Shown in pieces: positions 18,674-35,607 of a stretch of DNA of 64,000 nt (positions are counted from its first letter, which is position 1; the number at the start of each line of letters is the position of its first letter). Source of the stretch: Escherichia coli (GTDB lineage: Bacteria; Pseudomonadota; Gammaproteobacteria; Enterobacterales; Enterobacteriaceae); assembly GCF_003334765.1 (NCBI RefSeq), contig NZ_QOWT01000014.1. One strand, given 5' to 3'. A program made the translations under genes and the position numbers. A model generated the notes under the pieces. That model had not been told where the DNA came from. It was given only the letters and a program-made list of their open reading frames with translations, and searched no databases.

Positions 18674-19684
18674 ATGAGACGAGAACTTGCCATCGAATTT
18701 TCCCGCGTCACCGAATCAGCGGCGCTGGCTGGCTACAAATGGTTAGGACGCGGCGATAAAAACACCGCGGACGGCGCGGCGGTAAACGCCATGCGTATTA
18801 TGCTCAACCAGGTCAACATTGACGGCACCATCGTCATTGGTGAAGGTGAAATCGACGAAGCACCGATGCTCTACATTGGTGAAAAAGTCGGTACTGGTCG
18901 CGGCGACGCGGTAGATATTGCTGTTGATCCGATTGAAGGCACGCGCATGACGGCGATGGGCCAGGCTAACGCGCTGGCGGTGCTGGCAGTAGGCGATAAA
19001 GGCTGCTTCCTCAATGCGCCGGATATGTATATGGAGAAGCTGATTGTCGGGCCGGGAGCCAAAGGCACCATTGATCTGAACCTGCCGCTGGCGGATAACC
19101 TGCGCAATGTAGCGGCGGCGCTCGGCAAACCGTTGAGCGAACTGACGGTAACGATTCTGGCTAAACCACGCCACGATGCCGTTATCGCTGAAATGCAGCA
19201 ACTCGGCGTACGCGTATTTGCTATTCCGGACGGCGACGTTGCGGCCTCAATTCTCACCTGTATGCCAGACAGCGAAGTTGACGTGCTGTACGGTATTGGT
19301 GGCGCGCCGGAAGGCGTAGTTTCTGCGGCGGTGATCCGCGCATTAGATGGCGACATGAACGGTCGTCTGCTGGCGCGTCATGACGTCAAAGGCGACAACG
19401 AAGAGAATCGTCGCATTGGCGAGCAGGAGCTGGCACGCTGCAAAGCGATGGGCATCGAAGCCGGTAAAGTATTGCGCCTGGGCGATATGGCGCGCAGCGA
19501 TAACGTCATCTTCTCTGCCACCGGTATTACCAAAGGCGATCTGCTGGAAGGCATTAGCCGCAAAGGCAATATCGCGACTACCGAAACGCTGCTGATCCGC
19601 GGCAAGTCACGCACCATTCGCCGCATTCAGTCCATCCACTATCTGGATCGCAAAGACCCGGAAATGCAGGTGCACATCCTCTGA
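18674..19684 (+). CDS. glpX: class II fructose-1,6-bisphosphatase
   Basis: Track ORF 379 aa; ATG at 18674 gives 336 aa MRRELAIEFSRVTESAALAGYKWLGRGDKNTADGAAVNAMR. Confidence 0.94.
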   Translation: MRRELAIEFSRVTESAALAGYKWLGRGDKNTADGAAVNAMRIMLNQVNIDGTIVIGEGEIDEAPMLYIGEKVGTGRGDAVDIAVDPIEGTRMTAMGQANALAVLAVGDKGCFLNAPDMYMEKLIVGPGAKGTIDLNLPLADNLRNVAAALGKPLSELTVTILAKPRHDAVIAEMQQLGVRVFAIPDGDVAASILTCMPDSEVDVLYGIGGAPEGVVSAAVIRALDGDMNGRLLARHDVKGDNEENRRIGEQELARCKAMGIEAGKVLRLGDMARSDNVIFSATGITKGDLLEGISRKGNIATTETLLIRGKSRTIRRIQSIHYLDRKDPEMQVHIL

Positions 19685-19704
19685 TTGATTTGATCGATTG
19701 AGCC

Positions 19705-19733
19705 TTCCAGTCCTTCGGGACTGGAATTTTTTT
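19705..19733 (+). terminator. intrinsic terminator of glpFKX
   Basis: TTCCAGTCC-TTCG-GGACTGGAA followed by T7. Confidence 0.85.
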
Positions 19734-19780
19734 GTTCGGAGAACGAAGATAAGGCAAGTCAATCAAAACAGGAGAAAAAC

Positions 19781-20527
19781 ATGGCTGATTGGGTAACAGG
19801 CAAAGTCACTAAAGTGCAGAACTGGACCGACGCCCTGTTTAGTCTCACCGTTCACGCCCCCGTGCTTCCGTTTACCGCCGGGCAATTTACCAAGCTTGGC
19901 CTTGAAATCGACGGCGAACGCGTCCAGCGCGCCTACTCCTATGTAAACTCGCCCGATAATCCCGATCTGGAGTTTTACCTGGTCACCGTCCCCGATGGCA
20001 AATTAAGCCCACGACTGGCGGCACTGAAACCAGGCGATGAAGTGCAGGTGGTTAGCGAAGCGGCAGGATTCTTTGTGCTCGATGAAGTGCCGCACTGCGA
20101 AACGCTATGGATGCTGGCAACCGGTACAGCGATTGGCCCTTATTTATCGATTCTGCAACTAGGTAAAGATTTAGATCGCTTCAAAAATCTGGTCCTGGTG
20201 CACGCCGCACGTTATGCCGCCGACTTAAGCTATTTGCCACTGATGCAGGAACTGGAAAAACGCTACGAAGGAAAACTGCGCATTCAGACGGTGGTCAGTC
20301 GGGAAACGGCAGCGGGGTCGCTCACCGGACGGATACCGGCATTAATTGAAAGTGGGGAACTGGAAAGCACGATTGGCCTGCCGATGAATAAAGAAACCAG
20401 CCATGTGATGCTGTGCGGCAATCCACAGATGGTGCGCGATACACAACAGTTGCTGAAAGAGACCCGGCAGATGACGAAACATTTACGTCGCCGACCGGGC
20501 CATATGACAGCGGAGCATTACTGGTAA
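19781..20527 (+). CDS. fpr: ferredoxin/flavodoxin-NADP(+) reductase
   Basis: 248-aa ORF MADWVTGKVTKVQNWTDALFSLTVHAPVLPFTAGQFTKLGLEIDGERVQRAYSYVNSP. Confidence 0.95.
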   Translation: MADWVTGKVTKVQNWTDALFSLTVHAPVLPFTAGQFTKLGLEIDGERVQRAYSYVNSPDNPDLEFYLVTVPDGKLSPRLAALKPGDEVQVVSEAAGFFVLDEVPHCETLWMLATGTAIGPYLSILQLGKDLDRFKNLVLVHAARYAADLSYLPLMQELEKRYEGKLRIQTVVSRETAAGSLTGRIPALIESGELESTIGLPMNKETSHVMLCGNPQMVRDTQQLLKETRQMTKHLRRRPGHMTAEHYW

Positions 20528-20531
20528 GCGG

Positions 20532-20960
20532 TTACTTATCGATAAACGGCACGATGAGCAAATCCGCACTCATCTTATTGATCATCCCGCGATATGCCGG
20601 CATCAAACGGTTGATAAATGAGTGATGATGACCACAGACAAGGAGGTCGCACTGCTCTTTTTGCATAATTTCCAGCAGTGTTTCCGGCATTTCTCCGCGT
20701 TCAATACGCAGTTTTGTCTTCGGCCATTGAATATTTTTCGTCAGTTTATACAGCTTGTTATCCGACTTATTCTTCAACAATTGAAGAATATCTTCTGTTG
20801 CAGGGAAGTAGATACCCGGATACAACTCGCTTAAGCCATCATCAATATGAATTAACGTCAGGTGAGCGTCATTATGTCTGGCGAGCTCCAGGGCTTTATT
20901 CACCAGTAAGGCATCTTCTTCATTCCCGGAAATTGCCACGCCAATGTGTTTATAAGCCAT
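20532..20960 (-). CDS. uspD: universal stress protein D
   Basis: 142-aa [43 protein letters not shown]; UspA-family fold; position next to fpr. Confidence 0.9.
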
Positions 20961-20986
20961 GTTTAACTCCTTCTAAAGCAACTCCA

Positions 20987-21286
20987 TCAAGCTAACGAAC
21001 GCAGTGATAACTCAAAAATAATCATCTCGGCCTGGCATGAGAAAGTGAAGGCCGCATCAAGCTCAACTTGCCCCTCCAGATCCTTAATCTTATAGGCCAC
21101 GCTGGCCCCTTCATCTGCAGAGGATGTAGCGGCGGCAAGCTCTTTCAGTTTGGTCATAAAAGACTCTGCTTCTTCGCGGGTGGCAAAAAAGCGCGAAAAC
21201 TTACTGGTACAGTTGTCGTTATCAATCACCGTACCGATATCAATCGCACATCCTTTAGTACTGCATTTATCTACGACATCTTTCAT
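20987..21286 (-). CDS. yiiS: YiiS, small protein of unknown function (DUF406 family)
   Basis: 99-aa [29 protein letters not shown]...; 26 bp upstream of uspD, likely co-transcribed. Confidence 0.85.
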
Positions 21287-21497
21287 AGGGCACCTCTGTA
21301 TATTCGCCTCTCTGTCGATTACGACTTAAGAATAATGCGCCGTTAAGGGAAGAACAAACAAGTAATGATCTTATGGATTACCATTTTTTTTGATATTGCT
21401 TAAGGTGAAGAGTTCAGAAGGATTTTCCGGGTATTGTCATTTGCATCGTGGAAATAACAATCCCGGAAAAAAATAGCAGTAAGAGATATATTAAAGG

Positions 21498-21938
21498 TTA
21501 ATTACTTGATTTATTGTCGGCTTTATACTTCACATCCTGAGTATCTTTACCATATTTATTTTCGCCTTGTGTGCCAACAAACGCACCAAGATCGATAAGC
21601 ATCATCACCAGAATCAACGTCGGGACAAAACGCCCCACCGCCCATTGCCAGACACCCGGTAAAATCGCCCAGTTACCCGCCAGCAGCATCCACGCCACAA
21701 TCATCAGAAATGCCCATGCGCCGGAACGCCCGCGATCATGCAAGCGCTTAACAGTTACTGCCGCTGTTGGCCAGAGCAAGCACACAAGGCAAAACGCCGC
21801 GGTCTGAATATCGAGTAGATTCTTACCCGCCAGTGAGAAAAGCACCAGCATGCCTGCGAACCACAGGCCTATCCAAATCCAGAAATCACGGCGTCCAATA
21901 CGCCCTTTAAATGAGAATAACCATTGCTGTATGGTCAT
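21498..21938 (-). CDS. yiiR: YiiR, DUF805-family inner membrane protein
   Basis: 146-aa ORF MTIQQWLFSFKGRIGRRDFWIWIGLWFAGMLVLF; hydrophobic segments. Confidence 0.88.
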   Translation of the reverse strand: MTIQQWLFSFKGRIGRRDFWIWIGLWFAGMLVLFSLAGKNLLDIQTAAFCLVCLLWPTAAVTVKRLHDRGRSGAWAFLMIVAWMLLAGNWAILPGVWQWAVGRFVPTLILVMMLIDLGAFVGTQGENKYGKDTQDVKYKADNKSSN

Positions 21939-33727: not shown

Positions 33728-34762
33728 ATGAGTAACGCGATTACGATGGGGATATTTTGGCATTTGATCGGCGCGGCCAGTGCAGCCTGTTTTTACGCTC
33801 CGTTCAAAAAAGTAAAAAAATGGTCATGGGAAACCATGTGGTCAGTCGGTGGGATTGTTTCGTGGATTATTCTGCCGTGGGCCATCAGCGCCCTGTTACT
33901 ACCGAATTTCTGGGCGTATTACAGCTCGTTTAGTCTCTCTACGCTACTGCCTGTTTTTCTGTTCGGCGCTATGTGGGGGATCGGTAATATCAACTACGGC
34001 CTGACCATGCGTTATCTCGGCATGTCGATGGGAATTGGCATCGCCATTGGCATTACGTTGATTGTCGGTACGCTGATGACGCCAATTATCAACGGCAATT
34101 TCGATGTGTTGATTAGCACCGAAGGCGGACGCATGACGTTGCTCGGCGTTCTGGTGGCGCTGATTGGCGTAGGGATTGTAACTCGCGCCGGGCAGTTGAA
34201 AGAGCGCAAGATGGGCATTAAAGCCGAAGAGTTCAATCTGAAAAAAGGGCTGGTGCTGGCGGTGATGTGCGGCATTTTCTCTGCCGGGATGTCCTTTGCG
34301 ATGAACGCCGCAAAACCGATGCATGAAGCCGCTGCCGCACTTGGCGTCGATCCACTGTATGTCGCTCTGCCAAGCTATGTTGTCATCATGGGCGGCGGCG
34401 CGATCATTAACCTCGGTTTCTGTTTTATTCGTCTGGCAAAAGTGAAGGATTTGTCGCTAAAAGCCGACTTCTCGCTGGCAAAATCGCTGATCATTCACAA
34501 TGTGTTACTCTCGACACTGGGCGGGTTGATGTGGTATCTGCAATTCTTTTTCTATGCCTGGGGCCACGCCCGCATTCCGGCGCAGTATGACTACATCAGT
34601 TGGATGCTGCATATGAGTTTCTATGTATTGTGCGGCGGTATCGTCGGGCTGGTGCTGAAAGAGTGGAACAATGCAGGACGCCGTCCGGTAACGGTGTTGA
34701 GCCTCGGTTGTGTGGTGATTATTGTCGCCGCTAACATCGTCGGCATCGGCATGGCGAATTAA
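33728..34762 (+). CDS. rhaT: L-rhamnose-proton symporter
   Basis: 344-aa polytopic [38 protein letters not shown]. Confidence 0.95.
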
Positions 34763-35607
34763 TCTTTCTGCAAATTGAGATGACGCCACTGGCTGGGCGT
34801 CATCCCGGTTTCCCGGGTAAACACCACCGAAAAATAGTTACTATCTTCAAAGCCACATTCGGTCGAAATATCACTGATTAACAGGCGGCTATGCTGGAGA
34901 AGATATTGCGCATGACACACTCTGACCTGTCGCAGATATTGATTGATGGTCATTCCAGTCTGCTGGCGAAATTGCTGACGCAAAACGCGCTCACTGCACG
35001 ATGCCTCATCACAAAATTTATCCAGCGCAAAGGGACTTTTCAGGCTAGCCGCCAGCCGGGTAATCAGCTTATCCAGCAACGTTTCGCTGGATGTTGGCGG
35101 CAACGAATCACTGGTGTAACGATGGCGATTCAGCAACATCACCAACTGCCCGAACAGCAACTCAGCCATTTCGTTAGCAAACGGCACATGCTGACTACTT
35201 TCATGCTCAAGCTGACCGATAACCTGCCGCGCCTGCGCCATCCCCATGCTACCTAAGCGCCAGTGTGGTTGCCCTGCGCTGGCGTTAAATCCCGGAATCG
35301 CCCCCTGCCAGTCAAGATTCAGCTTCAGACGCTCCGGGCAATAAATAATATTCTGCAAAACCAGATCGTTAACGGAAGCGTAGGAGTGTTTATCGTCAGC
35401 ATGAATGTAAAAGAGATCGCCACGGGTAATGCGATAAGGGCGATCGTTGAGTACATGCAGGCCATTACCGCGCCAGACAATCACCAGCTCACAAAAATCA
35501 TGTGTATGTTCAGCAAAGACATCTTGCGGATAACGGTCAGCCACAGCGACTGCCTGCTGGTCGCTGGCAAAAAAATCATCTTTGAGAAGTTTTAACTGAT
35601 GCGCCAC
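34759..35607 (-). CDS. rhaR: AraC-family rhamnose regulator RhaR
   Basis: Track ORF 340 aa overlaps rhaS; GTG at 35607 gives 282 aa (M)[33 protein letters not shown]; start choice is from memory of annotation. Confidence 0.85.

Follow-up and report, generated by a model that had tools for sequence, protein, structure and literature searches.

Overlapping transcript ends at the tight convergent fpr–uspD junction of Escherichia coli

The fpr and uspD genes of Escherichia coli, whose stop codons face each other across 4 bp, are best explained overall as an ordinary tight convergent pair with overlapping 3′ untranslated ends, a reading to which we assign a probability of roughly 0.8. A spacer of this size is too small for a terminator, so each transcript ends within the other gene. 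The resulting overlap is most likely a by-product of genome compaction and of a terminator embedded in coding sequence; that it serves to tie uspD in particular to fpr is improbable, and antisense effects, if any, would probably be small and asymmetric. The new part of this analysis is small and comparative: the tight junction and an antisense hairpin appear to be features of fpr, and Escherichia alone has uspD at this site.

The junction and its mapped transcript ends

The window analyzed here is the whole stretch of 64,000 nucleotides from contig NZ_QOWT01000014.1, and it is 100% identical to E. coli K-12 MG1655 over 1.6 kb. A sequence-only reading of this DNA had proposed that the convergent fpr (+) and uspD (−) stops lie 4 bp apart, and both the coordinates and the gene names are confirmed by the open reading frames and by RefSeq, the MG1655 RefSeq annotation giving the same fpr and uspD ends and the same names as the ORFs of the window. 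The junction comprises the following features:

19781–20527, + strand: fpr coding sequence (ferredoxin/flavodoxin-NADP+ reductase), with a TAA stop at 20525–20527; from the ORF and RefSeq annotation
20528–20531, no strand: spacer GCGG between the fpr and uspD stops, 4 bp; from the sequence, with the same gap in the annotation
20532–20960, − strand: uspD coding sequence (universal stress protein D), with a TAA stop (TTA on the + strand) at 20532–20534; from the ORF and RefSeq annotation
20987–21286, − strand: yiiS (DUF406), adjoining uspD on its upstream side on the same strand; from the annotation

In the MG1655 RefSeq annotation, the local gene order is glpF-glpK-glpX-fpr (+), uspD-yiiS-yiiR (−), and yiiQ-tpiA (+). 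An 81-nt query spanning the junction found a match in every complete E. coli genome (5,426 of 5,426), with fpr and uspD annotated beneath it. An Rfam search of 19500–21600 returned no family at E ≤ 1. A small RNA or small ORF hidden in the junction was considered and dropped, having support neither in the ORF list nor in the Rfam search.

All transcript data were taken from published supplementary tables. The + strand of the window corresponds to the minus strand of NC_000913.3, and window positions were obtained by subtracting the genome position from 4134253. This conversion was checked on three features: the 3′ end of the glpX terminator at 4114522 falls at window 19731, the fifth U past a hairpin at 19705–19726, the glpX stop falls at 19684, and the start of yiiS is also placed correctly. 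Supplementary file 1 of Adams et al. (2021, eLife, PMC7815308) lists a Term-seq end at 4113600(−), designated “antisense uspD,” with ∼50,000 reads and present in all three sheets (LB OD 0.4, LB OD 2.0, and M63). The same file lists an end at 4113796(+), designated “antisense fpr,” with 1,132 reads and present only in the LB OD600 2.0 sheet. Supplementary file 2 compares DirectRNA-seq with and without bicyclomycin and provides Rho-dependent regions (PMC7815308). Converted to the window, these data give the following features:

20528–20653, + strand: 3′ UTR of the fpr mRNA, 126 nt, antisense to the last ∼41 uspD codons; dominant 3′ end at 20653 (Term-seq)
20457–20531, − strand: 3′ UTR of the uspD mRNA, 75 nt, antisense to the last ∼24 fpr codons; 3′ end at 20457 (Term-seq)
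20457–20653, both strands: segment transcribed on both strands, 197 bp; derived from the two Term-seq 3′ ends
20677, + strand: peak of a Rho-sensitive region in transcripts from fpr; 4113576(−), Rho score 3.65, p = 3e-18 (PMC7815308)
20453, − strand: peak of a weaker Rho-sensitive region in transcripts from uspD; 4113800(+), Rho score 2.82, p = 1.2e-5 (PMC7815308)

With the fpr transcript ending at 20653 and that of uspD at 20457, the mature mRNAs are complementary over 197 nt, and this mapped overlap is almost certainly real. The sequence-only reading had further held that no intergenic terminator is present and that the transcripts end within the opposite gene. The latter agrees with Term-seq, which places the ends 126 nt into uspD and 75 nt into fpr. 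The former stands for the spacer, which holds no terminator, but has to be amended in that terminators exist, embedded in the opposing coding sequences. Its prediction of overlapping 3′ ends is matched by RNA-seq coverage, in which the pair overlaps convergently in 50% or more of 58 transcriptomes, and the contrary outcome that it had named, transcripts ending exactly at their stop codons and antisense coverage absent, is contradicted by the published 3′-end maps. That reading had also named mutual antisense interference as a possible consequence.

The two 3′-end signals differ by ∼45-fold, with ∼50,000 reads for fpr versus ∼1,100 for uspD (Term-seq, PMC7815308). The fpr end has the same strength at OD 0.4 and OD 2.0 (about 50,100 versus 50,700 reads). 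The uspD end is detected only at OD 2.0, in early stationary phase, which is consistent with the induction of uspD in stationary phase described in the literature.

Termination on the two strands

We favor, with some reserve as to the mechanistic details, a model in which ribosomes would be gone from the fpr transcript after its stop codon and Rho would terminate the transcript around 20650–20680, the stable end at 20653, at the base of a weak stem, then resulting from trimming or pausing. On the other strand, uspD transcripts would stop at a hairpin of the intrinsic type whose U-tract is imperfect and which is encoded opposite the last 24 codons of fpr; Rho would remove the transcripts that run past this hairpin.

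For the fpr end, read-through rises when Rho is inhibited (published score 3.65, p = 3e-18). Upstream of this end, the structure does not exceed that of shuffled sequences (z = 0.13), as expected for a Rho-type end. The end itself lies at the foot of a weak stem, with a T5 run (20658–20662) located 5 nt downstream and the Rho peak 24 nt downstream; given this T5 run after a weak stem, the fpr end may have a weak intrinsic component. By composition, a rut-type C>G bias is absent from both 3′ UTRs, the C/G ratio of the fpr 3′ UTR being ∼1.0 over its 126 untranslated nucleotides, and because the C>G rut signature is lacking we only infer Rho termination and trimming of the fpr transcript. Rho-dependent ends that are trimmed back to a stem have been described (Dar & Sorek 2018; Adams et al. 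2021), and the fpr end shares with them a position more than 50 nt past the stop, a bicyclomycin-sensitive vicinity, and a location at the foot of a small stem. It differs from them in having no clear C-rich, G-poor rut and in being followed by T5.

The uspD end is associated with a different element:

20461–20501, − strand (uspD-sense): interrupted 14-pair hairpin, antisense to the fpr codons T-R-Q-M-T-K-H-L-R-R-R-P-G

This hairpin has a ΔG of −22 kcal/mol (z = −3.6), with no equally stable structure among 200 shuffles (0/200), and its stability exceeds that of 99.5% of 3,000 synonymous recodings of the fpr codons that it occupies. As looked for in an intrinsic terminator, the uspD end thus has a stable G+C-rich stem-loop. 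UCUUUC (20460–20455) lies directly 3′ of the hairpin, and the tail, UCUCUUUC, contains five U in eight positions and is interrupted. The mapped 3′ end at 20457 is located 4 nt past the stem, at a site with a Rho score of 2.82. A consensus promoter and terminator scan called no canonical terminator in 20300–20800; the scan misses the embedded hairpin because of its 9-nt loop and internal mismatches. The hairpin at 20461–20501 is a probable terminator or 3′-end-protecting stem of uspD. The interrupted U-tract, the position of the end only 4 nt after the stem, and the Rho sensitivity mean that the hairpin could instead protect an end produced by processing, with release taking place elsewhere.

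A stable hairpin within the fpr/uspD overlap would also be compatible with a collision-driven overlapping bidirectional terminator (Ju/Wang/Liu type), in which polymerases pause at the overlap hairpin, collide, and dislodge, without Rho or a U-tract. Convergent E. coli pairs in the hundreds have been proposed to use this mechanism, and the model pair, ynaJ-uspE, likewise includes a usp gene. The fpr/uspD junction shares with the ynaJ-uspE type (Ju, Li & Liu 2019) a convergent 3′ overlap with hairpin-forming sequence. However, the class is described as independent of Rho, its hairpin lying in a short overlap shared by both directions, whereas the fpr and uspD ends are both bicyclomycin-sensitive (Rho scores 3.65 and 2.82), lie 197 nt apart, and are formed at different elements. 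There is no single short shared hairpin, since a strong hairpin stands beside only one of the two ends, with significant structure on the uspD side only (fpr side z = 0.13). In addition, the fpr end is equal at OD 0.4 and OD 2.0 despite the weak expression of uspD in exponential phase, so that termination of fpr is independent of opposing traffic. We consider a collision-driven terminator very improbable at this junction, and retain the model of a Rho-type fpr end and a hairpin-associated uspD end.

The fpr 3′ end in relatives

A UspD scan of genome contigs identified only E. coli and E. albertii, and a word-based protein search with UspD gave E. coli variants for the most part. Because these UspD matches are narrow, the comparison was run through Fpr homologs and through a degenerate DNA pattern in metagenomes; one assembly of low quality, with frameshifts (L007), was left out of the comparisons. 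The 4-bp fpr-uspD gap is kept in E. coli, in E. albertii, and in a relative with an 85%-identical UspD. The yiiS-uspD module is absent between fpr and yiiR in four loci (L008–L011), those of Salmonella, Enterobacter, and Klebsiella and one with an Fpr common to several Enterobacteriaceae. In these four loci fpr converges directly on yiiR, with a gap of 0 bp in three of the four; in Salmonella, the fpr-yiiR spacer is 106 bp (L008 2748–2853). The Salmonella homolog of UspD (65% identity, L004) is found at a different locus, without yiiS. As a separate observation, the 106-bp Salmonella spacer holds a REP-palindromic-unit-like sequence, gccggattgcaggtcgcgccttatccgacc, and a REP-type element appears to replace the tight junction there.

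The degenerate DNA pattern, designed on the fpr C terminus, yielded a set of 120 metagenome loci, six of which have no identifiable downstream partner. A convergent partner was identified in the other 114 of the 120, yiiR in 106 and uspD in eight, with the following spacing:

yiiR partner, gap of 0 bp: 81 metagenome loci
yiiR partner, overlap of 10 bp: 5 metagenome loci
yiiR partner, gap of 1–2 bp: 7 metagenome loci
yiiR partner, gap of 14–121 bp: 13 metagenome loci
uspD partner, gap of 4 bp: 8 metagenome loci

Among the loci compared, and judging from their sequences, the yiiS-uspD module is at the fpr-yiiR site only in Escherichia. With yiiS-uspD lying between fpr and yiiR in Escherichia, uspD would occupy the position that yiiR holds elsewhere. 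We infer that near-zero spacing and the antisense hairpin characterize the 3′ end of fpr throughout Enterobacteriaceae. The GCGG spacer was also considered as a relic of the yiiR stop region in the ancestor, and this idea was dropped, as a 5-nt resemblance is no evidence.

Nearly all of 69 unique sequence variants of the fpr 3′ end retain the antisense hairpin. Across these variants, 87.6% of hairpin cells are paired in the antisense orientation, versus 68.5% in the sense orientation and 31–55% for slid partners, and the excess stability over synonymous recodings has a mean z of −1.94 antisense and −1.22 sense; these statistics are suggestive only, because they are confounded by strong amino-acid conservation and by the kinship of the 69 sequences, as well as by the E. 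coli codon usage that was applied to all 69 variants in the recodings. Tentatively, the hairpin in the last ∼24 fpr codons may be a “guest terminator” selected across Enterobacteriaceae to stop transcripts of any gene converging on fpr with virtually no spacer, yiiR ancestrally and uspD in Escherichia, a possibility that we take seriously while leaning slightly against it. Were it true, fpr codon choice would have been shaped by the termination need of a neighbor, and a newly arrived gene would have taken over the site.

Spacing in the genome and the excludon assignment

The fpr-uspD spacing is ordinary and not rare in E. coli. In 150 kb of MG1655 annotation, made up of the first 50 kb of the window plus two further stretches of 50 kb each, a gap of ≤4 bp is found in four of 20 convergent pairs:

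fpr-uspD, convergent: gap of +4 bp
rhaT-rhaR, convergent, in the same window: gap of −4 bp; rhaT 33728–34762 (+) and rhaR 34759–35607 (−), overlapping at 34759–34762
mtgA-yrbL, convergent: gap of −4 bp
pmrD-arnF, convergent: gap of −7 bp

Convergent pairs number 704 in E. coli (2026 preprint), and with four of 20 in the sample, dozens to about a hundred equally tight pairs are expected. The rhaT-rhaR, mtgA-yrbL, and pmrD-arnF pairs resemble fpr-uspD in their abutting or overlapping stops, and all three are on the published excludon list considered below; they overlap by 4–7 bp, whereas fpr and uspD are separated by 4 bp. The rhaT-rhaR pair is a second convergent junction in the window, tighter than that of fpr-uspD and also on that list.

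ExcludonFinder (NAR 2025, PMC12288877) places uspD-fpr among 165 convergent excludons and names it in the text, so that both the 3′ overlap and the pair by name are already known. The criterion for the list is RNA-seq overlap in ≥50% of 58 MG1655 transcriptomes (PMC12288877). By the operational definition of ExcludonFinder, fpr and uspD lie tail to tail on opposite strands and, in the published data, their transcription units overlap. The pair shares with most other convergent excludons a short intergenic distance and terminators inside the transcription unit of the neighbor, although its 4-bp spacer is far under the excludon mean of 95 nt (PMC12288877). The list is built on RNA-seq coverage only, such that membership of uspD-fpr is operational, and reciprocal expression or RNase III dependence is only implied by the concept (PMC12288877). 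Three E. coli usp genes are found in overlapping convergent pairs, uspC-otsA and uspD-fpr on the excludon list and ynaJ-uspE as the model overlapping bidirectional terminator, and this may be coincidence.

The same study presents uspD-fpr as an example of functional interdependence, on the grounds that both genes are linked to oxidative stress (PMC12288877). If the excludon were functional in this sense, the 197-nt overlap would have the genes of an oxidative-stress reductase and a stress protein repress each other, either by interference between RNA polymerases or by RNase III cleavage of the duplex. Besides the classification of the pair and the interdependence cited for it by ExcludonFinder, this idea draws on an overlap that is long enough for an RNase III substrate and on a junction that is invariant in 5,426 E. 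coli genomes. However, a literature search found no experiment on the uspD-fpr pair, and validation by p19 capture of dsRNA was not feasible for convergent excludons (PMC12288877). Furthermore, the pairing is Escherichia-specific, and fpr abuts yiiR elsewhere at similar near-zero spacing, which argues against a selected coupling of fpr and uspD functions. The ∼45-fold inequality of the 3′-end signals would make any effect one-directional. There is also a physiological difficulty, as SoxS activates fpr and uspD is reportedly needed under superoxide stress (Nachin et al. 2005); with both genes needed under that stress, mutual exclusion would be counter-intuitive. Considered together, we regard a functional excludon as unlikely, and the comparative result tempers the published suggestion that the uspD-fpr pairing reflects functional interdependence.

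As an ordinary tight convergent pair with overlapping 3′ ends, fpr-uspD is a clean textbook example of E. coli gene ends differing from transcript ends, of little importance beyond correct annotation. Each of the two mRNAs continues for tens of nucleotides antisense to the opposite gene, which is relevant to knock-outs, reporter fusions, and CRISPRi at either gene: a uspD deletion takes with it the 3′ UTR of fpr and the region in which fpr terminates, and an fpr deletion does the same to uspD.

Three minor observations concern the neighboring genes. The consensus scan identified a terminator-like hairpin followed by AGAGTCTTTT at 21168–21192 (−), inside the yiiS coding sequence and upstream of uspD. 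One E. coli assembly encodes a 324-residue “Fpr” (P0147) with an extra PF00359 domain (PTS EIIA type 2), which is probably a frameshift or assembly fusion. Finally, an orphan Term-seq end at 4112837(+) (PMC7815308) corresponds to window 21416 (−), within the yiiR-yiiS spacer (21287–21497). This end follows the stop of yiiR by 82 nt and precedes the start of yiiS by 130 nt, and it is probably either the yiiR terminator or a 3′ end in the yiiS leader.
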